Of a stretch of DNA of 64,000 bases, positions 8,241 through 22,176 are shown piece after piece. Position 1 is the first letter of the stretch. The number at the start of each line of letters is the position of its first letter. The stretch spans positions 91,219-155,218 of the forward strand of contig CAZHYJ010000002.1 of the NCBI GenBank assembly GCA_964536725.1. The letters run 5' to 3'. The stretch comes from an uncultured Gammaproteobacteria bacterium (GTDB lineage Bacteria > Patescibacteriota > Patescibacteriia > Magasanikbacterales > GWA2-37-8). The notes under the pieces are model-generated. The model had not been told where the DNA came from, made no database searches, and saw only the letters and a list, made by a program, of their open reading frames with translations. Both the position numbers and the translations under genes were made by a program.

Positions 8241-8267
8241 ATCCTCCAGGAATGGGGGATTTTTTTG
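8241..8267 (+). terminator. rho-independent terminator closing the ribosomal-protein operon
   Basis: AUCCUCC-AGGAAU-GGGGGAU forms a 7-bp stem with one U-G wobble. A UUUUUUUG run follows at 8261-8267. Confidence 0.6.
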
Positions 8268-8271
8268 TGGC

Positions 8272-8300
8272 TTGTCAATTATATTATAAAGGCGTAAAAT
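8272..8300 (+). promoter_or_regulatory. sigma70-type promoter TTGTCA-17-TAAAAT driving the mod-old-res operon
   Basis: TTGTCA at 8272-8277, a 17-nt spacer, TAAAAT at 8295-8300. It lies about 25 nt upstream of the mod ATG. Confidence 0.5.
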
Positions 8301-8325
8301 ATAGCTATAATTACTATATAATTGT

Positions 8326-10155
8326 ATGGTTAATACAACTTTTGTTAGTGGTCAGTCGCTTGATATTCAAGCTGAAAAATTGGATGTTTTAAAAAATAAC
8401 TTTCCAGAAATATTTACGGAAGGTAAGATTGACTGTCTAAAATTGAAGCAAACACTTGGTGAGTCAGTTAGTACCGATAGTGAACGATATGGTTTGAGTT
8501 GGGCTGGTAAGAGCAACTGTTTTAATGACATTCAGACGCCTACTATGGCGACTTTGGTGCCAAACAGGGACGAATCAGTGGATTTTGATAAGACTAAGAA
8601 TTTGTTTATTGAGGGTGAAAATCTAGAGGTTCTGAAGGTGTTGCAAAAAAGTTATCACAGCAAAGTAAAAATGATATATATCGACCCTCCGTACAATACT
8701 GGCACTGATAGTTTTGTTTACCCAGATAACTTTAGTGAGTCAGAGCAAGAATATTTGAAAAAGGCGGGAGACGTGGCGGAGACAGGAGAGTTGCTTAGAG
8801 ATTTTCATAAGAATTCCAAAGATGGTGGTAGATATCATAGTAACTGGTTGAATATGATTTACCCGCGTTTATTTTTAGCGCGTAATTTACTGCGTGAGGA
8901 TGGAGTTATTTTTGTGTCTATTGACGATAATGAAGCGCATAATCTACGTATGGTGATGAACGAGGTCTTTGGCGAGGAAAATTTTATTGGATCAATGATT
9001 CGCAAATCCAAGATAGGCGGCGGTTCTGATAGCAAATTTATCGTTAAGGAGCATGAATATTTAATTGTTTTTGCAAAAGATGCTCAGGGTTTGCCAGAAA
9101 TGTTTACGCCACACAATATAGAATATTTAAAACGCTACAAAGAAGAAGACGAAAATGGAAAATATTTTTGGGATACGTTTTCGAGACCTGGTCTAAAAAA
9201 TCCAATAAATTATGATGTTAAATTGCCAGACGGAACATTTAAAAACGGTGATTGGATAAGGTCTAAAGATAGATTTGAAGATGATTTAGAAAACGAAGAA
9301 ATCAGGTTTGTAAAAAAAGAAGACGGGTCTTGGAGTGTGCAGTTTAAACAATATTTGAATGAAGATGGTAAAAAACCAAGGTCTTTTTCTTCTGACTTAG
9401 GTTCGACAATTGATGGGAAAAAAGACATAAAAAGAATATTTGAAAACTCTAAAATCTTTTCGTACCCAAAGCCGGTAAAATTAATTAAGTTTATCGTTGA
9501 TATAGTAACTGAACCCGGGGATATCGTCTTAGATTTTTTTGCTGGATCAGGGACAACAGCAGATGCGATAATGCAATTGAATTCAATGAATGATGGTGAT
9601 AGAAATTTTATTTTAGTACAGATACCAGAACAAACCGACATAAAGAGTGTGGCATATAAGGAGGGGTATAAGACGATATCTGCTATTTGTGTCGAAAGAA
9701 TATGTCGTGCAAGTAATAAGATTAAAAAAGATTTGGAAAGCAAGCATATCGCAGACGTCGGTTTTAAAGTTTTAAAGTTGGAACAGAGTAATTTTAAAAT
9801 TTGGCGCGCAAGTAGTAACGATAGTGCCACAACATTGCAAGCCAAACTCGAGGACGTGGTGGAGAATGTTAAGTCAAAAGCAAATAAGGAAAGTATTCTT
9901 TTGGAACTCTTGCTTAAGTCCGGTGTTGAGCCAACTGTTGAGGTGGAAGACAAGAAGGATTTTTATTTAGTCAAAGAACATCAACTAGCAATTTGCCTAG
10001 CTGATAAAATTACCGAAAAAATAGTAGCAGATATTGTTGCCGAAAAACCTAAAACTGTTTTGTGTTTGGATACTTCGTTTGTCGGCAACGACCAGTTAAA
10101 AACCAATATCGCGCTTCAGCTTAAAAGTGAGGGGGTTGAGTTTAAAGTGGTATGA
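8326..10155 (+). CDS. mod: Type III restriction-modification methyltransferase (Mod), beta-class N6-adenine/N4-cytosine MTase
   Basis: DPPYNTG (motif IV, about nt 8683) comes before FFAGSGTTADA (motif I, about nt 9535). That circular permutation is typical of Type III Mod. 609 aa. Its stop overlaps the next start as ATGA. Confidence 0.85.
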   Translation: MVNTTFVSGQSLDIQAEKLDVLKNNFPEIFTEGKIDCLKLKQTLGESVSTDSERYGLSWAGKSNCFNDIQTPTMATLVPNRDESVDFDKTKNLFIEGENLEVLKVLQKSYHSKVKMIYIDPPYNTGTDSFVYPDNFSESEQEYLKKAGDVAETGELLRDFHKNSKDGGRYHSNWLNMIYPRLFLARNLLREDGVIFVSIDDNEAHNLRMVMNEVFGEENFIGSMIRKSKIGGGSDSKFIVKEHEYLIVFAKDAQGLPEMFTPHNIEYLKRYKEEDENGKYFWDTFSRPGLKNPINYDVKLPDGTFKNGDWIRSKDRFEDDLENEEIRFVKKEDGSWSVQFKQYLNEDGKKPRSFSSDLGSTIDGKKDIKRIFENSKIFSYPKPVKLIKFIVDIVTEPGDIVLDFFAGSGTTADAIMQLNSMNDGDRNFILVQIPEQTDIKSVAYKEGYKTISAICVERICRASNKIKKDLESKHIADVGFKVLKLEQSNFKIWRASSNDSATTLQAKLEDVVENVKSKANKESILLELLLKSGVEPTVEVEDKKDFYLVKEHQLAICLADKITEKIVADIVAEKPKTVLCLDTSFVGNDQLKTNIALQLKSEGVEFKVV

Positions 10156-11915
10156 AGATAAAAAAAGTAATCCTAGAAAACTTTAGAGCATATAGAGAAA
10201 AAATTTGTATAGATTTTGACGACATGACAGTTTTGATTGGGCAGAATGATGTTGGCAAGTCATCTTGGCTGGAAGCTCTTGATATTTTTTTTGAGGCTGG
10301 TGTGGTTAAGGTAGAGCCAAAAGACAGTACCATTAAAGAGTCCGAAACATTTTTTGTAACAGTGGTTTTTGCCCCACCAGAAAAAATCGTTATTGATGCA
10401 CAAGCCACGACCGTGTTAAGTGATGAGTTTTTGCTTAATGCGGATGCGGATTTGGAAATAAAAAGATGTTTTAAAAATGGCAAGGCTGGGAAAACTTTCA
10501 TAGTTGCCAACCATCCAACAAACAAGGAGTTGAAGGGGTTAATATCCCAAAAAATAGACGAGCTGAAGGATCTTGCGAGTAAATTGGGTGTCAAAGATGA
10601 AGCTGTTGAAAATAAAACTAAATCAGCTTCTTGGCGCAAGGCGATTAGAGATGCTGTGGAATTAGAATTTGGTTACCAAGAGATCGATATCGAGGGGGCG
10701 AAGGATATTTGGGCGCAAATAGAAAAGCAATTTCCAGTGTATAGTTTGTTTCAGTCTGACAGAAAAAATATTGATACAGATAACGAAGTGCAGGATCCTT
10801 TAAAAGCGGCTACAAAAATAATTCTTGCCAGGGAAGAGATAAAAGCCCTGCTTGGAGATTTGGAGACAAAGGTCAAATTAGCAACTGAAGAAATATCTAA
10901 CAAGACATTGGAGAAATTAAACGAAATGAATCCTGAATTAGCAAAGCATTTGCATGCTGATTTTGACAAACCCAAGTGGGACTTAGTCTTTAAACCGTTT
11001 ATAGATACTGACGATGGTGTCCCTTTAAACAAAAGAGGTAGTGGTGTTCGAAGAATGATATTGTTAAATTTTCTTAGGGCTGAGGCAGAGCGCAAAGCAG
11101 AAGGTGAGAAAAAAGATTTAATCTATGCGATTGAGGAACCAGAAACTTCGCAGCATCCTTTCCACCAAAGAATGATGATTGAGGCTTTGTTAGAACTTTC
11201 AAAAAGACACAATATCCAAGTGATTATAACGACGCATAGTCCGCAACTTATTAAAGATGTTGGATACAAGAATATACGTTTTATAGCTAAAACCGAAGAT
11301 AAAGCTAGACAAATAATATCTGGTGAAAAAGCAATGCAAATGACAATTAATGAGTTGGGTGAGTTGCCAAGAATTGATGGGGGTTACCTGTTTTGTGTTG
11401 AAGGCCAAAATGATGTTTCGTTTTTTAGAAATGTAGCAGGGGTGGTTAACTTATTTGATCTTAACAACATTCCGATATTACCTTTAAATGGTGGTTTTAT
11501 TAAAAAGTGGGCTGAGGAACATTATTTGGAAAATACTGATGTAAAGGAGTTTCATCTTTATGATCGTGATAATAAGGACGAAAGATACAAAGCAACAGCC
11601 GAGAAAGTTAGTAGCTGGCCTAATGCGCAAGCTGTTATAACCAAGAAGAGGGAGATCGAAAATTATGTTCACCCCAGTTTGATTAATGATAAATTTGGTT
11701 TAGACTTGGTTTTTGACGGATCTTGGGACGACAAGAATATTCCCAAAATATGTGCAGATAGAACTGGGGAAAAGGAGGAAGTGATAAAAGAAATTATTTG
11801 CGGTGAGTTATCCGTTAAAATGACAAAAGATTTTTTTGAAGAAATAGAAGCGTGGGATGAGGTAAGGGGCTGGTTTGAGCAAATGAATAAATTAGCGTTA
11901 AGTGGTTCAAAATAA
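10152..11915 (+). CDS. OLD-family ABC ATPase + C-terminal TOPRIM nuclease (class-1 OLD-like, 587 aa)
   Basis: N-terminus has Walker A GQNDVGKSS, Walker B/D-loop DLIYAIEEPETSQHP and H-loop ITTHSPQLI. C-terminus has a Toprim glutamate (LFCVEGQNDVSFF) and a DxD motif (HLYDRDN). Length and architecture match P2 Old. Confidence 0.75.
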   Translation: MKIKKVILENFRAYREKICIDFDDMTVLIGQNDVGKSSWLEALDIFFEAGVVKVEPKDSTIKESETFFVTVVFAPPEKIVIDAQATTVLSDEFLLNADADLEIKRCFKNGKAGKTFIVANHPTNKELKGLISQKIDELKDLASKLGVKDEAVENKTKSASWRKAIRDAVELEFGYQEIDIEGAKDIWAQIEKQFPVYSLFQSDRKNIDTDNEVQDPLKAATKIILAREEIKALLGDLETKVKLATEEISNKTLEKLNEMNPELAKHLHADFDKPKWDLVFKPFIDTDDGVPLNKRGSGVRRMILLNFLRAEAERKAEGEKKDLIYAIEEPETSQHPFHQRMMIEALLELSKRHNIQVIITTHSPQLIKDVGYKNIRFIAKTEDKARQIISGEKAMQMTINELGELPRIDGGYLFCVEGQNDVSFFRNVAGVVNLFDLNNIPILPLNGGFIKKWAEEHYLENTDVKEFHLYDRDNKDERYKATAEKVSSWPNAQAVITKKREIENYVHPSLINDKFGLDLVFDGSWDDKNIPKICADRTGEKEEVIKEIICGELSVKMTKDFFEEIEAWDEVRGWFEQMNKLALSGSK

Positions 11916-11922
11916 ACTTATT

Positions 11923-14604
11923 ATGAAACTCCAATTCGACCCAAATCAACAGTATCAACTTGATGCCATCAAATCCACGGTGGACGTTTTTGAAGGTCAG
12001 CCATTATCTGGTGGCGATTTTGAATTTACGCTCCTTCACACACAAAGTGGTTTGCGGTTGCCTAGTACCGGAGTAGCCAATAATTTGTTAATTGATGCTC
12101 AGACGATGCTTAATAATGTTAATGTGGTTAAAGAGAGGAACGGAGTACCGCTAGAAAAGGATGGAACGTCATTGGGTGTAGTGGAAATTGGGGCTGGGGT
12201 CTTTCCCCAGTTTACAATCGAAATGGAAACTGCGACCGGTAAGACCTATGTCTACCTTCGTACCGTATATGAGTTAAACAAGCAGTATGGCTTTAAGAAG
12301 TTTATCATTGTGGTTCCGAGTATAGCTATCCGAGAAGGTGTACTAAAGAATTTGGAAATAACCAAAGACCATTTTGCCTCATTGTACAATAATGTTCCAG
12401 TGGATTATTTTGTCTATGACAGTCGGAAGCTTGGTAAACTTAGAGGCTTTGCCACTGGTAATACTTTACAAATAATGGTGATTAACATCGATGCCTTTAA
12501 CAAGGATATTAACATAATGCACCAAGATGTGGACCGGCTGCAAGGTAAGCCAATAGATTTTATACGACAAACTTCCCCGATAGTAGTGATGGACGAACCA
12601 CAAAACATGGAGTCGGACACAGCCAAAAAAGCCATTGCAAGTTTAAATCCTCTATGCACTTTTAGATACAGTGCTACTCACCGCAATTATTACAACTTGT
12701 TATACAAGTTAGATCCAGTGCAAGCATACGACCTTGGATTGGTAAAAAAAATAGAAGTAGATTCGGTGCTTTCTGACTCTGATGCAAACAACGCTTTTGT
12801 GCAGTTGGTTTCTATCGACAGCAAAAAGAAAGGTATAACCGCCAAAATCAAAATTCATGTAAATGAGAAAGACGGAGCATCTTCAAAGCAAGTAACAATA
12901 AAACCAGGGAGTGACTTGTTTGAGTTATCCAAGGAGCGGGAAGTTTATAAAAGTGGTTTTACCGTAGAAGGGATTGACGCAGAAAATGGCTATATCGAAT
13001 TTAGCAATGGTGTTGTCATTAAAAACGGTGAGACGCGTGGTGGTTTGTCCGATGAAATAATGAAGGAACAAATCCGTGAAACTATTCGCGAGCACTTTGA
13101 GAAAGAGTTGAAGTTGACTGCCAAGGGTATAAAAGTTTTGTCTTTGTTCTTTATAGACAGGGTGGCAAATTACCGCGCCTATAGTGGTAACGAACAACAG
13201 AAGGGTAAAATCGCCCAGTGGTTTGAAGAAATTTATAGTGAGATGGCGAAGTTGGAGAAGTACAAGGAGCTGAACTTGGCGGAGGCAGGATTGGTGCACA
13301 ATGGCTATTTTTCGATAGACAACAAAGGACATGTAAAAGACACTAATGGTCAGACACAGGCAGATGACGATACTTATGCTTTAATTATGAAGGACAAAGA
13401 GAGACTGCTGTCTTTTAGAGAACCGTTAAGATTTATTTTTTCTCACTCTGCCTTGCGTGAAGGTTGGGACAGTCCAAACGTTTTTCAAATTTGTACACTA
13501 AACGAAACGAAATCAGAATTAAAAAAACGACAAGAAATTGGTCGTGGTTTGAGATTGGCAGTCAACCAAGATGGCGAGCGTATTTTTGACACCACGATTA
13601 ATCGTTTGACTGTTATTGCTAATGAGAGTTATGAAGAGTTTGCTAATAAACTACAAACAGAGATACATGACGAGTGTGGGGTAGACTTTACTGGTAGAAT
13701 AAAAAATAAGAAAAAATCTAAAGTGGTGAAGGTGAAGAAAGGTTACCAGTTAGATGAAAACTTTAAAGCACTTTGGGATAAGATAAAGCAAAAGACCAAG
13801 TACCAGGTGGAATTTAAAACTGATGAATTGATTGCAAAATCTGCTAAGGCAGTAAAAGAAATGTCTCGAATAGAGTCAATTAAAATAAAAGTAAGCAAAG
13901 CCAGGATTGAAATGAAGCAGGAGGGAATTTTTGCTACTCCGCCATCGAGAGAGAAGGATATTGAGTTTGTAATTAACGACCTTTTTATTCCCGACGTTTT
14001 GCACTACATACAAACCAAAGTGGAGCTTACCAGAGATACTATCTACAAAATTATTTTGAAATCAGACAGGTTGGACGATATACTGGTTAACCCACAACAA
14101 TTTGTTGATCAAGTGTCAGAGATAATTAGATTTACCTTACAGCAGATGATGGTGGACGGAATTAAGTATGAGAAGATAGCTGGGCAGGAATATAAGATGA
14201 CATTGTTTGAGTCGGAGGAACTAATGGTATATTTGAGCGACAAAAATACTTACGAGGTCAAAGACAAAGCAAAGACTGTTTATGATTATTATGAACTAGA
14301 CTCAGAAGTTGAGTCAGATTTTATTAAAGCATTGGAAGAGCGTGAGGATATTTTGTTCTACGTTAAATTACCTCGGTGGTTTACCATTGGTACACCGATT
14401 GGTACATATAATCCAGATTGGGCGATTGTGTTTGAGGGTGATAAGAAGTTGTATTTTGTGGCTGAGACAAAGGGAACTAACAAGGTGGAACAATTGAAAT
14501 TGTCAGAGCAGTTAAAGATTAGGTGCGGTGAAAAACATTTTGCAGAATTTGAAGGTGTAGAATTTAAAGCGCCGGTGGTTGGATTGCAGGATGTGTTAAA
14601 ATAA
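11923..14604 (+). CDS. res: Type III restriction enzyme Res subunit (SF2 helicase + C-terminal PD-(D/E)XK endonuclease)
   Basis: MKLQFDPNQQYQLDAI start. Motif I METATGKTYVYL, motif II DEPQN, motif III SAT. C-terminal YNPDW..FEGD..FVAETKG nuclease motif. The ORF track starts at a GTG at 11902, but the ATG at 11923, 8 nt past the old stop, is preferred. Confidence 0.85.
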   Translation: MKLQFDPNQQYQLDAIKSTVDVFEGQPLSGGDFEFTLLHTQSGLRLPSTGVANNLLIDAQTMLNNVNVVKERNGVPLEKDGTSLGVVEIGAGVFPQFTIEMETATGKTYVYLRTVYELNKQYGFKKFIIVVPSIAIREGVLKNLEITKDHFASLYNNVPVDYFVYDSRKLGKLRGFATGNTLQIMVINIDAFNKDINIMHQDVDRLQGKPIDFIRQTSPIVVMDEPQNMESDTAKKAIASLNPLCTFRYSATHRNYYNLLYKLDPVQAYDLGLVKKIEVDSVLSDSDANNAFVQLVSIDSKKKGITAKIKIHVNEKDGASSKQVTIKPGSDLFELSKEREVYKSGFTVEGIDAENGYIEFSNGVVIKNGETRGGLSDEIMKEQIRETIREHFEKELKLTAKGIKVLSLFFIDRVANYRAYSGNEQQKGKIAQWFEEIYSEMAKLEKYKELNLAEAGLVHNGYFSIDNKGHVKDTNGQTQADDDTYALIMKDKERLLSFREPLRFIFSHSALREGWDSPNVFQICTLNETKSELKKRQEIGRGLRLAVNQDGERIFDTTINRLTVIANESYEEFANKLQTEIHDECGVDFTGRIKNKKKSKVVKVKKGYQLDENFKALWDKIKQKTKYQVEFKTDELIAKSAKAVKEMSRIESIKIKVSKARIEMKQEGIFATPPSREKDIEFVINDLFIPDVLHYIQTKVELTRDTIYKIILKSDRLDDILVNPQQFVDQVSEIIRFTLQQMMVDGIKYEKIAGQEYKMTLFESEELMVYLSDKNTYEVKDKAKTVYDYYELDSEVESDFIKALEEREDILFYVKLPRWFTIGTPIGTYNPDWAIVFEGDKKLYFVAETKGTNKVEQLKLSEQLKIRCGEKHFAEFEGVEFKAPVVGLQDVLK

Positions 14605-14609
14605 ATATT

Positions 14610-15053
14610 ATGACTGGAGTAAAAGTTGTCTCTGAAGAATTTGTGCAACGTACAATTATTTGTTGGTTATCAAGTCATGGTTGGGGAGCGAGTTTGCGGT
14701 TTGGCGCATTACATGATAAGGGTGTGGATATTAAAGTTAGACACAATAAATATTCTAGATATTTTTTGATTGAAACAAAAGGTGAGGGAAGTGCTACTTC
14801 TAAATCACGTAATTCCCAAAAAGAAACCCATTTTGTTTTTGGTTTAGGACAGATAGTGACGCGTATGAATTGTGGTGGTAGTACTAGAAATTATTATGGT
14901 TTAGGATTGCCTGAATCTAGTGCTAAAATTGCTCTGCGTCGTTTGCCTTGGCAGGTTGCTAAAAAATTATTACTGCATATATTTTCTGTTAACGGAAACG
15001 GCGAGGTAGTACAATTTAGTTGGAAGGAATTAAAAAAAATTCAAGAAAAATAG
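14610..15053 (+). CDS. small PD-(D/E)XK-fold protein (Hjc/Mrr-like), 147 aa, trailing the res gene
   Basis: Starts 5 nt after the res stop. GVDIKV...YFLIETKGEG fits a D..(D/E)xK nuclease core. Size and pattern resemble Hjc/Mrr-cat mini-nucleases. This is a motif-level call only. Confidence 0.35.
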   Translation: MTGVKVVSEEFVQRTIICWLSSHGWGASLRFGALHDKGVDIKVRHNKYSRYFLIETKGEGSATSKSRNSQKETHFVFGLGQIVTRMNCGGSTRNYYGLGLPESSAKIALRRLPWQVAKKLLLHIFSVNGNGEVVQFSWKELKKIQEK

Positions 15054-15078: not shown

Positions 15079-15834
15079 ATGTCCCAATACTACAACCCCC
15101 AACGCACCACCAAAATGTACACCGGCCTGTCTTCCGATAAACCGTTCGCATTGTCCCGTTCCAAAATTGACCTTTTCCTAGAGTGTCCGCGTTGTTTTTA
15201 TCTTGATCGCAAACTGGGTGTTGGACGCCCACCAGGATTTCCGTTTAATTTAAATACAGCGGTTGATCATCTTTTAAAATTAGAATTTGATATTCATCGG
15301 GTGAACGGGACCAAACATCCGTTGATTGAAAAATATGGCGTTGATGCTCAGCCGGTCGCGCATCGTGATTTGGATAAATGGCGTGCCAATTTTACCGGTG
15401 TGCGCTATTTGCATACTCCCACCAATTTGATGATCTTTGGCGCGATTGATGATCTGTGGATAAATTCTAAAGGTGAATATATTGTGGTGGATTACAAAGC
15501 CACATCAAAAGATGAGAAAATTACCAAATTAAACCAAGGTTGGCAGATTGGGTACAAACGACAGATGGAAGTATATCAGTGGCTTTTGCGTCAGAATGGT
15601 TTTAAGGTTTCTAATACTGGATATTTTGTCTATTGCAATGGTCAAAAAGATCGTAAAGCTTTTGATGGTAAATTGGAATTTGATGTGACTTTGATTGCGT
15701 ACAAGGGTGATGATTCGTGGGTGGAGAAAACTATTGTTAAAGCGCACAAGTGTTTGAACGGTGGTAAGATTCCGAAGGCGAGCGGGGAGTGTGATTATTG
15801 TAATTATATTAAGGCGGTGAATAGTAAATTATAA
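15079..15834 (+). CDS. Cas4/RecB-like PD-(D/E)XK nuclease-family protein with 4-Cys cluster
   Basis: N-terminal CPRC. GAIDDLW...IVVDYKATS gives the D..D-x-K nuclease motif. C-terminal C-x14-CDYC. About 250 aa, the usual size for standalone Cas4-like nucleases. Confidence 0.65.
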   Translation: MSQYYNPQRTTKMYTGLSSDKPFALSRSKIDLFLECPRCFYLDRKLGVGRPPGFPFNLNTAVDHLLKLEFDIHRVNGTKHPLIEKYGVDAQPVAHRDLDKWRANFTGVRYLHTPTNLMIFGAIDDLWINSKGEYIVVDYKATSKDEKITKLNQGWQIGYKRQMEVYQWLLRQNGFKVSNTGYFVYCNGQKDRKAFDGKLEFDVTLIAYKGDDSWVEKTIVKAHKCLNGGKIPKASGECDYCNYIKAVNSKL

Positions 15835-16205: not shown

Positions 16206-17441
16206 ATGAACCAAGCTAAAGCTTTAAAAATCCTACAATCCGGGGAGAATGTTTTTTTGACTGGTTCTGCTGGTAGTGGAAAGACTTTTTTGTTAAACAA
16301 ATTTGTTGACTACTTAACATGTAAGAAGATAAAGGTGGGGATAACCGCTTCCACCGGTATTGCTGCGACCCATTTAAACGGACGGACTATTCACTCTTGG
16401 TGTGGAATGGGGATTGAAAAGAAGATGAGTGCTAAAAAAATTAAAAAGATGTTGAAGCGACCAGAGTTGTTTGAAAGGATTAAAACTGCTGCCGTTTTGA
16501 TTATCGATGAAATCTCCATGCTCGACGCCGATCGTTTGGATCTGGTTGATAAGATTTGCAAGGCGGTCAGAAATCCCTTTGCTCCGTTTGGTGGAATTCA
16601 AATTGTTTTGTGTGGCGATTTTTTCCAATTGCCCCCGGTCAACAAAGATTCAAAATTTGCTTTTCATTCTTTTGCATGGAAACATTCAAATATCAAAGTC
16701 TGTTATTTAGACGAACAATTTAGACAGGATGATAAGGAGTTTTTAAATGTTTTAAACAAAATACGCGCCAATGAAGTTGGGGAAAAAGAATTGGAGTTGT
16801 TAAAATCTAGATTGCACGAACCGGTTACGCACGCGCCCAAGTTGACCAAGCTCTATACCCACAACATCAATGTGGATGCGTATAATGATTTTGAATTGTC
16901 CAACATCCAAAAGGAAGAAAAAATATATCGTATAACTGAACACGGCCCCGAAGAGTTGGTGAATTTTTTGAAGAAAAGTTATCCTGCTGTGGAAGAATTA
17001 AAGTTGAAAGTTGGTGCGGTGGTGATGTTTATAAAAAACAATTTTGATAGTGGTTATGTCAATGGCACTTTGGGGGAGGTAGTTGATTTTGATGACGGCG
17101 GTTATCCGATTGTTAAAACTAGAAATAAAGAAAAAATTGTTGCTATGCCGTCTAGTTGGAATATTGAGGAAGACGAAGTGGTTTTGGCGAGTATTAGGCA
17201 GGTGCCATTGCGTTTGGCTTGGGCGATAACCGTACACAAAAGTCAGGGGATGAGTCTGGATGCAGCGGAGATAGACCTGTCCAAGTCATTTGAACGTGGT
17301 ATGGGCTATGTGGCTTTATCGCGTGTGCGATCTTTAAGTAGTATCCGTTTGATGGGGATAAATGAAATGGCTTTGCAGGTGAATGAACAGGTGGTTAAAA
17401 AGGATAAGGATTTTAAGGTTTTGTCGGAGCAGAATAAATAG
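16206..17441 (+). CDS. Pif1-family (RecD-like, SF1B) DNA helicase
   Basis: LTGSAGSGKTF (Walker A), TGIAATHLNGRTIHS, LIIDEISM (Walker B), CGDFFQLPPV and VHKSQGMSLD motifs. 411 aa. Confidence 0.8.
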   Translation: MNQAKALKILQSGENVFLTGSAGSGKTFLLNKFVDYLTCKKIKVGITASTGIAATHLNGRTIHSWCGMGIEKKMSAKKIKKMLKRPELFERIKTAAVLIIDEISMLDADRLDLVDKICKAVRNPFAPFGGIQIVLCGDFFQLPPVNKDSKFAFHSFAWKHSNIKVCYLDEQFRQDDKEFLNVLNKIRANEVGEKELELLKSRLHEPVTHAPKLTKLYTHNINVDAYNDFELSNIQKEEKIYRITEHGPEELVNFLKKSYPAVEELKLKVGAVVMFIKNNFDSGYVNGTLGEVVDFDDGGYPIVKTRNKEKIVAMPSSWNIEEDEVVLASIRQVPLRLAWAITVHKSQGMSLDAAEIDLSKSFERGMGYVALSRVRSLSSIRLMGINEMALQVNEQVVKKDKDFKVLSEQNK

Positions 17442-17575
17442 GGTAAAAAAATAACCCCGAAGGGCTATTTCCAACCATGTTTCCTACTGCTGGTTTCCCA
17501 GCCACGCCACCGTCCGGTGACAGTTCGGATAACAGGTTTTTGTAAAATTATTTTATCACAGTTATGATATTTTGC

Positions 17576-17637: not shown

Positions 17638-18390
17638 ATGTTCAAACCACAAACAACCAGGATAAATGAGGTAGCAAATAACTATCGTGTCAGAATTGCC
17701 GCTTTAGAGCAGTTGTTTTTTGGTACTGTGAATATTTACGTCGATTACGCCAATGTTAGACCGTGGGCAACTAAACTGGGTTGGAATATTGATCTAAGGA
17801 GGTTAAAACAGTTTTTGTATTCTTTCAATAATGTTGCGTCGGTAAAGTTTTATAGTGGACTACTGCTTGGGGATATTGATTCGGAAGATTTGGATGAAGA
17901 GTGTAAGAAGTTATTTAAAGATGATTATAAAACTAAGTCGGTAAAAATTTTAAAGAAGTCTATAGATTACAGCAGTATAAAATCAAATTCTTCAGACTTG
18001 CTGGAGCAGTTTGTACGCAAGTGTCTGCTTCGAGAATATACACTGGACACAATTGAATATTTGAACGAACGGTTTAGAGATTTAAATCAAATTGGTAAAT
18101 TATTCATAGAAGATAGAAAATGTAATTTTGATGTGGAAATTGGGACTGATATGGCTCTGGATTTAGAAAGAAAAGGTGTGGACACTTTTGTTTTATGGAG
18201 TGGCGACAGTGATTTTTATGATCCAGTATTAAAACTTCTAGAAAAAGGAAAAAGAGTAATATTGTTTGCGACGGCCAGAAAAGTATCGTCGGAGTTAAAT
18301 GATCTCGGCCAAAAAGGTTTGTGTATTTATGATATTCAAAAAATCAGGAATTTTATATGCTACAAGCGGCAGATTGATTTGAGTCTGTAA
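17638..18390 (+). CDS. NYN-domain (LabA-like, PIN-like) predicted RNase
   Basis: VNIYVDYANV at the N-terminus. DVEIGTDMALD...FVLWSGDSDFYDPV..GKRVILF are the characteristic NYN acidic motifs. Confidence 0.7.
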   Translation: MFKPQTTRINEVANNYRVRIAALEQLFFGTVNIYVDYANVRPWATKLGWNIDLRRLKQFLYSFNNVASVKFYSGLLLGDIDSEDLDEECKKLFKDDYKTKSVKILKKSIDYSSIKSNSSDLLEQFVRKCLLREYTLDTIEYLNERFRDLNQIGKLFIEDRKCNFDVEIGTDMALDLERKGVDTFVLWSGDSDFYDPVLKLLEKGKRVILFATARKVSSELNDLGQKGLCIYDIQKIRNFICYKRQIDLSL

Positions 18391-18584: not shown

Positions 18585-18932
18585 ATGACTGATGTTAAAC
18601 AGTTAACTGAGAGGATGCTAAAATTTAGGGACGAGCGTGATTGGAAGCAGTTTCATAACCCGAAAGATTTGGCGATTTCTTTGTCGTTAGAGGCGTCGGA
18701 GGTTTTGGAACATTTTCAGTGGAAGACGAATGAGGAGGTTGCCAAATATGTTAAGACAGATCGGGAAGAAATTGGGGACGAGTTGGGTGATGTGATGAAC
18801 AACTTACTTTTGTTGGCTGAAGCGGTGGGGGTAGATATATTGGACGCAGCAGAGAAAAAGATTGAGAAGAACGAGAAAAAGTATCCGGTGGACAAGGTGA
18901 AGGGGTCCGCGAAGAAGTATGATCAGTATTAG
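18585..18932 (+). CDS. MazG-like nucleoside-triphosphate pyrophosphohydrolase (small all-alpha NTP-PPase)
   Basis: 115 aa. EASEVLEHF...REEIGDELGDVMNNLLLLA supplies the EExxE/D metal-binding helices of the MazG/HisE fold. Confidence 0.75.
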   Translation: MTDVKQLTERMLKFRDERDWKQFHNPKDLAISLSLEASEVLEHFQWKTNEEVAKYVKTDREEIGDELGDVMNNLLLLAEAVGVDILDAAEKKIEKNEKKYPVDKVKGSAKKYDQY

Positions 18933-18960
18933 TGAGTGAGATAAATTTTTTGAATGTGAA

Positions 18961-18990
18961 TACCCTTGACAAAACAAGGGTATTTTGATA
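18961..18990 (+). terminator. rho-independent terminator after the MazG-like gene
   Basis: TACCCTTG-ACAAAA-CAAGGGTA hairpin followed by TTTTGATATTATTTTTTG. Confidence 0.55.
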
Positions 18991-19077
18991 TTATTTTTTG
19001 TTGCAAAGGAAAGCGGTTAGGCTGTCTTTTTTAGGTAATTTAACCGGTTTCCTTGGGTAGTAAAGGAGGACGGGATT

Positions 19078-19338
19078 ATGAAGAAGTGCAACAGGGAACA
19101 CGTGGTCATTCTGGGGACGAATCCTGATGGCACCGTGGACATGATGTGCGACGATGGGTCGGTGGGCCAGGCCGTCCCGCGCAAAGGAGGCGAGTTCAGA
19201 CTCGAGCCCACGGAGGTCGACGGCCTCTACCACCGAGTCTCCACCCGTGGCAACAAGTCCAGGGTCGGCTACTCGAAGGCCTTCGCCGACAACTGGGATG
19301 GCATTTTCGGCGCCAAGCTGGATACCACCGTGAACTAA
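19078..19338 (+). CDS. hypothetical protein (86 aa) encoded on a ~60%-GC foreign islet, preceded by a strong AAAGGAGG SD
   Basis: GC content jumps from about 38% to about 60% between roughly 19040 and 19420. Perfect SD 8 nt before the ATG. High-GC codon usage. No similarity I can name. Confidence 0.45.
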   Translation: MKKCNREHVVILGTNPDGTVDMMCDDGSVGQAVPRKGGEFRLEPTEVDGLYHRVSTRGNKSRVGYSKAFADNWDGIFGAKLDTTVN

Positions 19339-19456
19339 GGAGGTCGTCATGAACCGTCCAACCGGACCGCCGCAAGGCAGGTGGTCCAAGCGGAACAAAA
19401 ATCCGCTCGCACCACCATGTATATTTCTAAATATTTGGGAATACACATGGAGGGTT

Positions 19457-19478
19457 ACCGCGAGCGGTTTTTTTGTTG
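19457..19478 (+). terminator. weak rho-independent terminator (ACCG-CGAG-CGGU + U7)
   Basis: Short 4-5-bp GC stem followed by TTTTTTTGTTGT. Lies at the 3' edge of the high-GC islet. Confidence 0.35.
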
Positions 19479-19499
19479 TACAATAAAAAACTAGTGTAA

Positions 19500-19558
19500 A
19501 TAGCGTCAGTTTTTTGATTTCAGATTTTTATGATAAAATATACAGTATAATTAATTTA
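19500..19558 (+). promoter_or_regulatory. conserved promoter cassette copy B upstream of the MazF/PemK-like gene
   Basis: ATAGCGTCAGTTTTTTGATTTCAGATTTTTATGATAAAATATACAG. TGaTAAAAT extended -10 at 19531-19539. Paralogous to copy A. Confidence 0.4.
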
Positions 19559-19574
19559 TAAATTATATTTAGTT

Positions 19575-19976
19575 ATGAATAATAAGGAGGGGGTTGAGAA
19601 GTTCATTGAGTGGACAAAATTAAAAATACGACTACACATTTCTTTACACGAAATCTATTTTCGAGAAGGGGAAATTTGGTGGGCGAGCTTGGGTGTAAAT
19701 GTTGGCCACGAACAAGATGGGAAAAATGAAAATTTCGAGAGACCGATCTTAATATTAAAAAAATTTAATCAGCATGTTCTTTGGGCGGTGCCACTCACTA
19801 GTCAGGTCAAAGAAGATAATCCGTATTATATAAAATATAAATTAGGTGATAATGTTTATGCTGCGGTTATTTCCCAGCTTAGGTTGGTAAGTTCAAAGAG
19901 GTTGCGTAGAAAGATTGGTATGTTTTTAGCAGAAGACTTCGAAAGGGTTAGACAAGAAATTAAAAAACTTATATAA
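19575..19976 (+). CDS. MazF/PemK/Kid-family endoribonuclease toxin-like protein (with ~30-aa N-terminal extension)
   Basis: REGEIWWASLGVNVGHEQDGKN..RPILIL...AVPLTSQ. This matches the G-D/E-I-W-W-x-x-L and E-Q-x-G-x-RP-x-L-I-L and P-L-T-S-Q signature blocks of PemK/MazF. Confidence 0.7.
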   Translation: MNNKEGVEKFIEWTKLKIRLHISLHEIYFREGEIWWASLGVNVGHEQDGKNENFERPILILKKFNQHVLWAVPLTSQVKEDNPYYIKYKLGDNVYAAVISQLRLVSSKRLRRKIGMFLAEDFERVRQEIKKLI

Positions 19977-20181: not shown

Positions 20182-21177
20182 ATGTTGATTCAAATTGCCG
20201 ACAATAAATCTGTTTGGGATGCTTTTTTGCTGAAAAATAAAGCGGTTTTTACACAGTCCTGGGATTGGGGTGGCGTTTTGGCGTCTGAAGGTAAAAAGAT
20301 TGAAAGATTGTTGGTGGTGGATGGTACGGAGATTGTGGCGGCGGTAATGGTGGTGTATAACTTTTTTCCGTTTGGTATTAAATACGCGGCAGCTTCTTGG
20401 GGGCCGGTGTTTGCTAAGGGAATGGAGAATAGGGGTGGGGAGTGTTTAGATTTACTTGGGAAATATTTTAAAGATAACGGTTGTGTATTTGCACGGATTG
20501 AACCATTGGTTTTGTTTGATACTAAAAGTGAATACAAATTAAAACAAATCAAAGATGTTAGTCCAAGTCATACACTCGTTTTGGATCTGACAATGGGTGA
20601 AGAAAAAACAATGTCTGGAATTGAAAAAAAGACCCGCTATGAAATTCGTCAGGCGCAAAAAAACAATTTGGAAGTGAAAGAACAAAAAGATCCGGATATT
20701 TTTTGGAGCTTAATGAAAAAGACGGCGAGTCACGATGGTTTTCGTACGCATCCAGAGGAGCATTACAAAAAGATATTAGCAAGTGACAGTAGTGTACAGT
20801 TAAATGCCTGCTATCATGGACAGCCAATTGCCACGGCGATTTTTTGGGAGTGGGATGGTATGTTCACATATATGTTCGCGGCCACCGATCGAAATTTTAG
20901 TAGTTTATCGGCGGCATATTTAATTCAGTGGGAAGCGATTAAGTTGGCCATGGGTCGGGGTTGCACGGCCTATGATTTTTTTGGTGTCGCGCCCAAGACT
21001 ATCGCACCGGACGCGCCGTATGATTATGATCGCAAACATCGCTACGCTGGTTTTACCAAATTCAAATTAGGTTTCGGTGGTCAACATAAAAATTTTCCGG
21101 GTACGTATGATTTGATTTTAGATCCCACTAAATATTATTTTTATTTACTCCTACGTTCAGTTAAACGTTTATTTTAG
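20182..21177 (+). CDS. FemAB/FemX-family aminoacyl-tRNA-dependent peptidoglycan peptidyltransferase (paralog 1)
   Basis: 331 aa. FemABX-like N- and C-lobes (WDWGGVL.., YDFFGVAP.., KHRYAGFTKFKLGFGG). Confidence 0.75.
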   Translation: MLIQIADNKSVWDAFLLKNKAVFTQSWDWGGVLASEGKKIERLLVVDGTEIVAAVMVVYNFFPFGIKYAAASWGPVFAKGMENRGGECLDLLGKYFKDNGCVFARIEPLVLFDTKSEYKLKQIKDVSPSHTLVLDLTMGEEKTMSGIEKKTRYEIRQAQKNNLEVKEQKDPDIFWSLMKKTASHDGFRTHPEEHYKKILASDSSVQLNACYHGQPIATAIFWEWDGMFTYMFAATDRNFSSLSAAYLIQWEAIKLAMGRGCTAYDFFGVAPKTIAPDAPYDYDRKHRYAGFTKFKLGFGGQHKNFPGTYDLILDPTKYYFYLLLRSVKRLF

Positions 21178-21180
21178 GAT

Positions 21181-22176
21181 ATGTTAAAAGTGATCAACAA
21201 CAAAATCGAGTGGGATGAATTGTTGGCACGTTTTGTGGCTTCTTTTTTACATTCTTCCGAATGGAACGAAGTTTTGCTTGAGAGCGGACAAACAGTGGAG
21301 CGCGTGTTGGTTGAAAATGGTAGCGCGAGTTTATTGGCACTGTTAGTTTTTAAATCTTTGCCGTTTGGGCGGAAGTTTGTTTTTTGTCCGACGGGTCCGT
21401 TGGTGAGTGGTGGGGGAGTTGATAACGAAAAGAATTGGCGAGAGTTAATTAAATATATCAAAGAAAAAGAGTGTATATTTTTTAAATTTGAACCGAGCAA
21501 TGTTGAACAGTTGCCCGATTTTGTTAAACGTTCAAAAAGAGTGGTGCGTGATGTTAATCCGATGGCGACGATGGTGCTGGATGTGTCTAAAATTGTTCGG
21601 GAGATTTTTCAGTCATTTCATCAGAAGACGCGGTATAATATTAATCTGGCGGAAAGAAAAGGGTTGAGTGTAAAATGGGAAAAGAATTTTCCAGTGTTTT
21701 GGGAGTTGATGAAAAAAACTGGGGCGCGCGATGGTTTTGGTTTGCATCCCGAAAAAAATTATGCGGCGGCGGTAAGCAGTCCAGCCACGCGTCAGGTGAC
21801 CATTTACTCAGGCAATACACCAGTGGCTGCCGGATGCTTTTGGATAACCAATGATATTTGTTATTATCTCTACGGTGCGTCGGATCATGACTTTCGTCAA
21901 TTAATGGCACCATATTTGGTACAGTGGGAAGCGATTAAAATGACTAAAAATGCTCGGTGTAAATATTACGATTTTTTTGGTGTGGCTCCGAGAATTAATG
22001 CTGCGGGCGAAGAGTATGAATATGACCCTAAACATCGCTACGCCGGTGTCACGCGTTTTAAATTAGGTTTTAATGGTCGGATAGTAGAAACGCCGGGAAC
22101 ATTTGATCTGCCGATAAACCGTTTTTGGTATGGGGTATATTATTTGTCCCGTCGTCTGCGTGGATTAAAAGTTTAG
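21181..22176 (+). CDS. FemAB/FemX-family peptidoglycan peptidyltransferase (paralog 2, tandem duplicate)
   Basis: Also 331 aa and collinear with the upstream paralog (YDFFGVAP.., KHRYAGVTRFKLGFNG). About 40% identical by eye. Confidence 0.75.
   Translation: MLKVINNKIEWDELLARFVASFLHSSEWNEVLLESGQTVERVLVENGSASLLALLVFKSLPFGRKFVFCPTGPLVSGGGVDNEKNWRELIKYIKEKECIFFKFEPSNVEQLPDFVKRSKRVVRDVNPMATMVLDVSKIVREIFQSFHQKTRYNINLAERKGLSVKWEKNFPVFWELMKKTGARDGFGLHPEKNYAAAVSSPATRQVTIYSGNTPVAAGCFWITNDICYYLYGASDHDFRQLMAPYLVQWEAIKMTKNARCKYYDFFGVAPRINAAGEEYEYDPKHRYAGVTRFKLGFNGRIVETPGTFDLPINRFWYGVYYLSRRLRGLKV

Follow-up and report, generated by a model that had tools for sequence, protein, structure and literature searches.

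A restriction-modification (R-M) operon of Type III with an OLD-family gene between mod and res was analysed in a 64,000-nucleotide stretch of DNA (the window), which covers positions 91,219 to 155,218 on the forward strand of contig CAZHYJ010000002.1. The assembly, GCA_964536725.1, is named as an uncultured Gammaproteobacteria bacterium and is placed by GTDB in the Patescibacteriota (Magasanikbacterales, GWA2-37-8). The nearest relatives in the searches suggested an origin in the Patescibacteria (Candidate Phyla Radiation). A sequence-only reading of the window had proposed a fused defence module in which a P2-Old-like nuclease is a component of the Type III system. The analysis points instead to a self-sufficient OLD gene that is probably carried as a cassette in a Type III operon. 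The features of this operon, numbered by their position in the window, were as follows.

8242-8266, + strand: terminator-like hairpin (8242-8258) and T-run after rpsI, 5-bp stem with 3 GC pairs
8272-8300, + strand: sigma-70-like promoter candidate, TTGTCA-17-TAAAAT, 10/12 matches
8326-10155, + strand: mod, Type III Mod methyltransferase, 609 amino acids (aa)
10152-11915, + strand: OLD-family gene, 587 aa, with an ABC ATPase (~aa 1-367) and a Toprim plus helical C-terminal domain (~aa 412-587)
11923-14604, + strand: res, Type III Res, 893 aa, ATG start
14610-15053, + strand: PD-(D/E)XK-fold open reading frame (ORF), 147 aa

The ORF map bore out the proposed string of mod, the 587-aa ORF, res and the 147-aa ORF, all on the + strand and tightly spaced. 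The mod stop and the OLD start share an ATGA overlap at 10152-10155, the OLD stop (TAA, 11913-11915) is followed by 7 nt before the res ATG at 11923, and a further 5 nt separate the end of the res stop (14604) from the ATG of the 147-aa ORF (14610). An alternative GTG at 11902 gives a 900-aa Res; ATG 11923 was taken as the right start because the homologs and the family consensus begin with MKL. The order and strand of mod and res are kept, but the 1.76-kb OLD gene separates the two, and co-transcription is predicted. The claimed promoter sequence is present and shares the top score within 7.8-17.6 kb. The hairpin at the end of the ribosomal operon, just 5' of the Type III operon, is a weak match, and hairpins of this kind are no more frequent in the region than expected by chance.

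Mod and Res form a Type III pair, as had been proposed. Mod matched the PADLOC model MTase_III end to end (8.8e-188) and Pfam N6_N4_Mtase at 7e-39. Its DPPY motif (aa 120-123) precedes FAGSG (FxGxG, aa 405-409), which is the order of beta-class methyltransferases. Res matched PADLOC REase_III (3e-298) and the Pfam models ResIII and RE_endonuc (PF19778). The superfamily 2 (SF2) helicase motifs TGKT (aa 105-108), DEPQ (aa 224-227) and SAT (aa 250-252) were present, together with the C-terminal PD-(D/E)XK nuclease motifs NPDW (aa 830-833) and ETKG (aa 848-851), so that the defining features of both the Mod and the Res subunit were found. The score of Res with NCBIfam PRK15483 was 329.7 bits, under the equivalog cut-off of 564, and Res is therefore no EcoP15I-type equivalog. 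Its family is very large and well conserved, with 55-58% identity across Patescibacteria, Nitrospirota, Elusimicrobiota, Bacillota and others. The likeness to canonical Type III systems (EcoP15I, EcoP1I) extends to the beta-class motif order of Mod, the SF2 helicase and C-terminal PD-(D/E)XK nuclease of Res, the position of mod before res and the tight coupling. Unlike those systems, the pair in the window is split by an unrelated gene of 1.76 kb and trailed by an extra PD-(D/E)XK gene.

The middle ORF of 587 aa had been described as a full-length OLD protein. Residues 1-367 matched the Pfam ABC ATPase model AAA_15 (1.1e-73). As for Mod and Res, the motifs that had been cited for this protein were each located at defined residues: Walker A GQNDVGKSS (aa 30-38), IEEPE (aa 327-331) and TTHSP (aa 360-364) in the ATPase, and VEGQND (aa 416-421) and YDRDN (aa 470-474) in the Toprim domain. 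In the C-terminal ~220 aa, no match to Toprim, OLD-Toprim (PF20469) or DUF4435 models was obtained from Pfam, NCBIfam or PADLOC, and with the C-terminal 217 aa no Pfam model of any kind matched even at E=10. Since the Toprim models of these libraries gave no match, the identity of this domain needed other evidence.

More than 5,900 homologs of the middle protein were found, the best of them full length (600-620 aa), 40-48% identical and distributed over many phyla; some are labelled by the Joint Genome Institute (JGI) as 'ATP-dependent endonuclease of OLD family'. An alignment of 28 sequences showed E417, G418, D421, P444, G447, D471, D473 and E503 to be invariant in the C-terminal region. When the profile of this alignment was searched against the PDB, the best match was the class 1 OLD of Thermus scotoductus (TsOLD, 6P74; 2.8e-19), and GajA matched at 6e-18. 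In the hidden Markov model alignment, the VEG motif fell on LLVEGYGD/LLIEGPSE of TsOLD/GajA, and YDxD on TDND of GajA. The AlphaFold model (predicted local distance difference test, pLDDT, 80.5) has a C-terminal core of beta-alpha-beta-alpha-beta-alpha-beta topology. A Foldseek search with this model returned GajA first, with the retron Eco8 OLD and TsOLD also in the top ranks and with whole-chain alignments. Comparison by hhalign with a PF20469-positive OLD gave 98.7% probability, through the EG and DxD motifs. Both hallmarks of the OLD superfamily, an ABC ATPase at the N-terminus (with Walker A, signature-like motif, Walker B/D-loop and H-loop) and at the C-terminus a Toprim domain with the catalytic Glu and DxD, were present. 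Profile, fold and domain-level comparisons identify the middle protein as an ATPase-Toprim protein of the OLD family, and from its sequence it is predicted to be a nuclease. The description as a full-length OLD is thus carried by AAA_15, the PDB profile, the fold and hhalign, although Toprim models from the three libraries did not match. The epithet 'P2-Old-like' was retained at superfamily level only; tblastn of the middle protein against 50,697 phage records gave just seven weak or partial matches and did not recover P2 Old at E<=1e-3, and a closer kinship with P2 Old was rejected.

OLD proteins are classified by context as single-gene (class 1), with a UvrD-like GajB (class 2), with a retron reverse transcriptase (RT; class 3) or as PARIS AriA/AriB (class 4) (PMC10568477, PMC12392090). 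By gene context the middle protein fits class 1 only, because no GajB, RT or AriB-type partner adjoins it. The ATPase and Toprim domains lie in one protein without a dedicated partner, and no neighbour was conserved across 80 loci of the subfamily. It resembles other class 1 proteins (P2 Old, TsOLD, Vc OLD, E. coli YbjD) in having no UvrD helicase, RT or separate Toprim gene, and TsOLD of this class was its best sequence match in the PDB. It differs from them in lacking a PF20469 match, in belonging to a distinct large subfamily of ~600-620 aa, and in the conserved C-terminal helical tail of that subfamily (W525, K546, E570, W574, F575). Class 1 OLD has been described as not near other defence genes (PMC10568477), a trait that fails here, as this subfamily often adjoins such genes. 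A single-gene class 1 OLD alone suffices for phage defence (PMC12392090).

Gabija was rejected, as no UvrD-like gene is adjacent. GajA is comparable in its profile and fold scores (6e-18 and the top Foldseek match), with the Toprim EG and DxD motifs aligned. However, the gene 3' of OLD encodes the Type III Res, an SF2 helicase, and not a UvrD/PcrA/Rep-like GajB; the nearest superfamily 1 (SF1) helicase lies four genes away, is Pif1/RecD-like, and matched PADLOC GajB only at E=0.0034. For class 3, no RT was found in the region of the window and no retron RNA by Rfam. Nor was the class 4 combination of AriA with a DUF4435-type Toprim AriB present.

The interval between the mod stop and the res start (the slot) was then surveyed in the 80 best tblastn matches of one metagenome scan made with the Res alignment. 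A same-strand mod lay upstream of res in 59 of these 80 loci. Only 23 of the 59 were bare mod-res pairs, which contradicts, for this Res family, the view that an unaccompanied mod-res pair is the norm in Type III systems. A co-directional cargo ORF of at least 140 aa was present between mod and res in about 30 of the 59, while two had only small co-directional ORFs and four had a gap of ~0.3-1 kb with only small antisense ORFs.

The cargo was diverse. OLD/AAA_15 proteins occupied the slot in loci L085, L104 (PF20469-positive) and L125, and Schlafen/AlbA_2 proteins in at least seven loci, three of these with an 883-aa ABC ATPase. Further occupants were a SIR2+HerA pair, an AAA+ ATPase with a subtilase, an MmeI-like Type IIG enzyme, a C5-methyltransferase with a GHKL ATPase, RhuM, a YhcG PD-(D/E)XK nuclease and DUF6978 with DUF1828/1829; several cassettes had no annotation. 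ABC-ATPase cargo (OLD, the 883-aa ABC protein and a 534-aa AAA_21 protein) accounted for 8 of the ~30 filled slots.

The order mod-OLD-res was found in five loci, namely the window, L182, L085, L104 and L125. L182 holds the closest Patescibacteria Res (P0125, 56% identity) and has a 4-nt overlap at both junctions. As four further loci carry the same order, the arrangement is no one-off, and the proposed check for the triad in other genomes came out positive. The five OLD proteins all have the EG...DxD signature; their mutual identity is at most 26%, which marks them as independent captures. A conserved triad of the window's own OLD subfamily was rejected, since the other triads use different OLD lineages; among the best 80 genome loci of this subfamily, described below, the window alone had the mod-OLD-res order.

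Filled slots were also seen in other Res families. The order mod-RhuM-res was present in L068 and L074 (ResIII family of Bacteroidota loci), and the HI_1054-type Type III operon in L168 read mod-SduA(Shedu)-[homolog of the 147-aa protein]-DUF3800-res.

Cassettes without an annotated function were located at L129 3087-5358, L130 5725-7992, L135 2786-3697, L141 4646-8001, L094 2683-4457, L148 2256-3776 and L084 6503-7738. Such cassettes comprised a ~260-aa family with a ~445-aa partner, a trio of 469, 380 and 266 aa, a pair of 369 and 232 aa, a 506-aa protein, and DUF6978 with DUF1828/1829. All of these are candidate new defence systems on the guilt-by-embedding argument. In the Nitrospinota-type locus L183-L185 (4540-6491), mod was split into two N6_N4_Mtase ORFs of 362-390 aa and 225 aa, which precede DUF6978+DUF1828/1829 cargo and then res. 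This split may reflect a frameshift, phase variation or decay.

The slot contents turn over between closely related res genes. Res was 97% identical between L125 (OLD+RhuM) and L129 (other cargo), 99% between L089 and L132 (different cargo), and 85% between L099 (bare) and L141 (three-gene cargo). In all three pairs, blastn homology broke at the mod stop and restarted at the res start. The junction gaps in loci with cargo were mostly -4 to +13 nt, like those of bare pairs. The OLD gene shows the features of an embedded cassette: it is nested and on the same strand, it has homologs that are not embedded, and the slot has alternative occupants. The probable route of cassette exchange is homologous recombination across the conserved flanking sequences, the 3' part of mod and the 5' part of res. 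Composition gave no sign of a recent OLD insertion, and this idea was rejected, as GC content was 0.33-0.40 throughout mod, OLD and res without a step at either junction.

A separate difference was seen in mod itself. The central mod segments of L125 (3992-4519) and L129 (1883-2440) had no detectable homology, while mod was otherwise 84-91% identical. This pattern would fit an exchange of the target-recognition domain besides the cargo swap.

The contexts of the OLD subfamily were determined from the best 80 of 577 relatives in a genome scan, in which genes were called, neighbours clustered and recurrent clusters annotated. The contexts were highly variable and included housekeeping genes, R-M systems of several types, retron-type RTs, SNF2 and SF1 helicases and STAND NTPases. 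OLD was followed by a Type III-like pair (N6_N4 methyltransferase and ResIII helicase) in 7 of the 67 loci with usable context (L018, L022, L029, L033, L059, L068 and L074), all from Bacteroidota and relatives. The two closest relatives among the best 80 loci (L001 and L002), both from the Candidate Phyla Radiation (CPR), had the order mod-res-OLD-Cas4-like. Type I genes (hsdM and/or hsdR) lay beside OLD in L007, L070, L028 and L040, with OLD between hsdM and hsdR in the first two, and C5-methyltransferase/HpaII-type Type II genes lay beside it in five loci. A DNA methyltransferase was within three genes of OLD in 16 of the 67 loci and adjacent in nine. The closest homolog (P0002, 47% identity) had no R-M neighbours. 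Among plasmid copies of the subfamily (368 records), OLD was standalone in E. coli pCss165Kan, directly 3' of a dcm/PmeII pair in Lactiplantibacillus plantarum, and 3' of a large methyltransferase in Micrococcus luteus. The subfamily thus behaves as an autonomous single-gene module that often sits beside or inside R-M systems of any type.

The same neighbourhoods cut across the context-defined OLD classes. A retron-type RT lay upstream of OLD in two loci (a class 3-like context), an SF1 AAA_11/AAA_12 helicase beside it in two, and an SNF2 helicase beside it in three. One sequence subfamily therefore spans several such classes.

Based on these data, the OLD gene of the window is best read as an autonomous single-gene module that a Type III operon carries as a cassette, the two giving layered defence as independent modules in one transcription unit; the probability of this reading was put at about 0.72. 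As the first-line system, Mod would methylate its own recognition site on host DNA and Res would cut unmethylated DNA. The OLD cassette between the mod stop and the res start would be co-transcribed and translationally coupled with both. By analogy with P2 Old and Vc OLD, it would act as an independent second layer that nicks or degrades DNA once activated by an infection cue. The OLD is regarded as autonomous because its subfamily occurs without R-M genes and also with Type I, II and III systems in varied positions. The dedicated fused module of the sequence-only reading does not fit these observations, as the slot holds many unrelated defence genes that are swapped between near-identical res genes, and OLD is also found standalone or with Type I and Type II systems.

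Several points weigh against this reading. The Res-side sample includes related loci, and the slot occupancy of ~50% is therefore rough. Gene calls in the surveyed loci came from a simple greedy longest-ORF procedure, and the counts of OLD beside R-M genes are raw, without a matched background rate for OLD beside any defence gene. The number of sigma-70-like matches in the region, 23 compared to 26.6 in shuffled sequence, was not above chance, so that 8272-8300 is a plausible promoter only, despite its joint best score. Finally, five independent mod-OLD-res triads and seven OLD-mod-res loci raise the possibility of selection for a functional pairing of OLD with Type III systems.

Such a pairing is central to the main rival, an integrated guard of the PrrC or PARIS kind, in which OLD would bind or sense the Mod2Res1 complex and be held inactive there. 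Blocking of the Type III enzyme by a phage anti-restriction protein would free OLD to destroy nucleic acid, and the three genes would form a single functional unit. There are precedents in PrrC, which EcoprrI keeps silent until T4 Stp frees it, and in Ocr, which triggers PARIS and Gabija. The interaction of OLD with Mod2Res1 itself is proposed by analogy. The guard is favoured by the assembly of mod-OLD-res at least five times from divergent OLD lineages, by the 4-nt overlaps at both junctions of L182 and the ATGA overlap in the window, and by ABC-ATPase cargo in 8 of ~30 filled slots. In the 7 of 67 loci with OLD directly upstream of a Type III-like mod-res, the OLD and Res identities also co-vary (r=0.73). 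Among these, however, the OLD proteins of L022 and L029 are 85% identical while their Res proteins are only 49% identical. The same OLD subfamily also occurs with no R-M genes nearby and with Type I and Type II systems, and the same Res family occurs bare or with unrelated cargo that is swapped at 97-99% Res identity. Repeated capture of OLD keeps the guard alive, but the autonomy of OLD and the wide range of cargo that the slot accepts speak against it, and it was judged unlikely. A broader form, in which several Res families share a dedicated slot from mod stop to res start and ABC-ATPase nucleases such as OLD serve there as PrrC-like guards on Mod2Res1 under selection for coupling, is similarly doubtful.

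A fused PARIS system was also considered, in which the middle protein would be an AriAB fusion (class 4 OLD) whose Toprim domain cleaves tRNA upon sensing anti-restriction proteins. Fused AriAB forms have been reported (PMC12392090). A site next to an R-M system suits the logic of PARIS, and the best PADLOC match of the middle protein was the AriA model PDLC02979 (4e-64, full model length). That model, however, covers the same residues 1-367 as the generic AAA_15 (373 versus 374 model positions). The AriA structure in the PDB matched only profile positions 329-377, in the Walker B region, and its E-value of 6.5e-8 compares with 2.8e-19 (TsOLD) and 6e-18 (GajA). The Toprim domain of AriB belongs to the DUF4435 family, and the C-terminal 217 aa gave no DUF4435 match even with the cut-off at E=10. 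On the absence of DUF4435, the weak match to the AriA structure and the Foldseek ranking, the fusion was rejected as very unlikely. Still more improbable is a passive hitch-hiker or decaying insertion, by which OLD landed in the operon by chance and contributes nothing or disrupts res expression. The operon does lie in an acquired low-GC island where unrelated defence genes gather. Yet mod, OLD and res are all intact and full length with their catalytic motifs conserved, the junctions overlap or are a few nt apart as in bare pairs, and the same architecture recurs independently.

The proposed OLD cassette has close parallels in other defence operons. Defence genes embedded in Type I R-M, BREX, DISARM and Hma systems have been described, 96.7% of them co-oriented, with the ABC ATPase-Toprim proteins HEC-01 and HEC-04 among the commonest cargo (Payne et al. 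2024, bioRxiv 10.1101/2024.01.29.577857). Examples include TgvAB in a V. cholerae Type I R-M system (PMC11411939) and, as the classic guard, PrrC of the Type I system EcoprrI (bioRxiv 10.1101/2024.01.29.577857; PMC11411939; PMC3710099; PMC12707154). A backup role when R-M is blocked, which the sequence-only reading had raised by analogy with PARIS, is a legitimate hypothesis; it has already been proposed for embedded ABC-ATPase systems (Payne et al. 2024) and is represented by PrrC. The window shares with these operons a self-contained, co-oriented defence gene inside a methylation-based restriction operon, an ABC ATPase-Toprim protein as typical cargo, a diverse and mostly defence-like range of cargo, and layered or backup immunity as the expected benefit. 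In contrast to the host systems analysed by Payne et al., from which Type III is absent, the host here is a two-gene mod-res operon. Its slot is a single precise position from mod stop to res start, is ~50% occupied in the sampled Res family, and has its cargo swapped between near-identical res genes. No description of genes between Type III mod and res was found in the open-access literature, which is no proof of novelty. The known embedding phenomenon is thereby extended to Type III, where the host has two genes and the slot is unusually precise, often filled and apparently undescribed.

If the slot is general, Type III operons would provide a second and simple setting, with just two flanking genes and exact boundaries, in which new anti-phage genes could be sought through guilt by embedding. 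The assumption of a bare pair is corrected, and interrupted systems will escape annotation tools that insist on adjacency. The locus could also serve as a tractable model for whether a single-gene OLD acts alone or with restriction, and for how CPR bacteria, with their reduced genomes, pack several defences into a single transcription unit. Taken singly, it is a modest result, one more embedded OLD that becomes ordinary once the slot is recognized; the slot is the useful handle for defence-gene discovery.

The 147-aa ORF that follows res had no match in the Pfam, NCBIfam or PADLOC libraries. Its family comprised 457 proteins of 60-78% identity, mostly from Patescibacteria, some with an N-terminal HARE-HTH domain (PF05066). 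E9, D40, E55 and K57 were invariant, and the alpha-beta-beta-beta-alpha-beta core with D on beta2 and (D/E)xK on beta3 was present, as expected of the PD-(D/E)XK fold. A tblastn search of the 147-aa protein against 160 fetched loci found nothing, and the link to R-M emerged from the loci of its own homologs. Of five relatives sampled, four lay inside or just 3' of Type III or Type II R-M systems and one in a non-defence context. The ORF is best described as an R-M-associated PD-(D/E)XK mini-protein. In L168-L171 (2796-9920), its homolog was one of three genes inside the HI_1054-type mod-res operon, the others being an SduA_C nuclease and DUF3800.

The Type III operon stands at the start of a defence island that spans about 11.7 kb. 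GC content falls from ~0.43 in the ribosomal genes to 0.33-0.40 between 8.3 and ~18.7 kb. The annotated genes beyond the operon were as follows.

15079-15834, + strand: solo Cas4-like PD-(D/E)XK nuclease with a C-terminal Cys cluster (Pfam PDDEXK_1 5.5e-15, Cas4 models)
16206-17441, + strand: Pif1/RecD-like SF1 helicase (Pfam PIF1 5.7e-40; PADLOC GajB only E=0.0034)
17638-18390, + strand: NYN RNase (Pfam)
18585-18932, + strand: MazG-like protein (Pfam)
19575-19976, + strand: MazF/PemK toxin (Pfam)

The Cas4-like gene shares 60% identity with the one at 11807-12574 in L001, which comes next after the OLD homolog there. Such a gene directly follows the OLD homolog in both of the closest CPR loci, and directly follows res in L117 (5083-5775, 41%). 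Solo Cas4 in CPR genomes, and solo Cas4 adjoining R-M in DPANN archaea, have been noted earlier (PMC5704561). The co-directional string also includes a 93-aa ORF with hydrophobic stretches and no Pfam match, possibly a membrane protein. The Pif1/RecD-like helicase is not adjacent to OLD and is therefore no GajB-type partner. A tRNA or integrase boundary for the island was rejected, as no tRNA was found in 1-30000.

Three minor observations were made in the island. The Rfam DUF3800-IX RNA motif (RF02968) was detected at 17469-17538 on the - strand with 43.2 bits, above the gathering score, between the + strand Pif1-like helicase and NYN ORFs. A DUF3800 protein was not seen in the vicinity; in the L168 Type III operon, one of the embedded genes, beside the homolog of the 147-aa protein, is DUF3800. 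A GC spike of 0.47-0.51 at 18800-19700, within the island of 0.33-0.40, covers an unannotated 151-aa ORF (18991-19446, - strand) and an 86-aa ORF (19078-19338, + strand) upstream of MazF/PemK, of which the latter may be the MazF/PemK antitoxin. Two tandem 331-aa paralogs of the FemAB family (20182-22176) mark the return to housekeeping genes.

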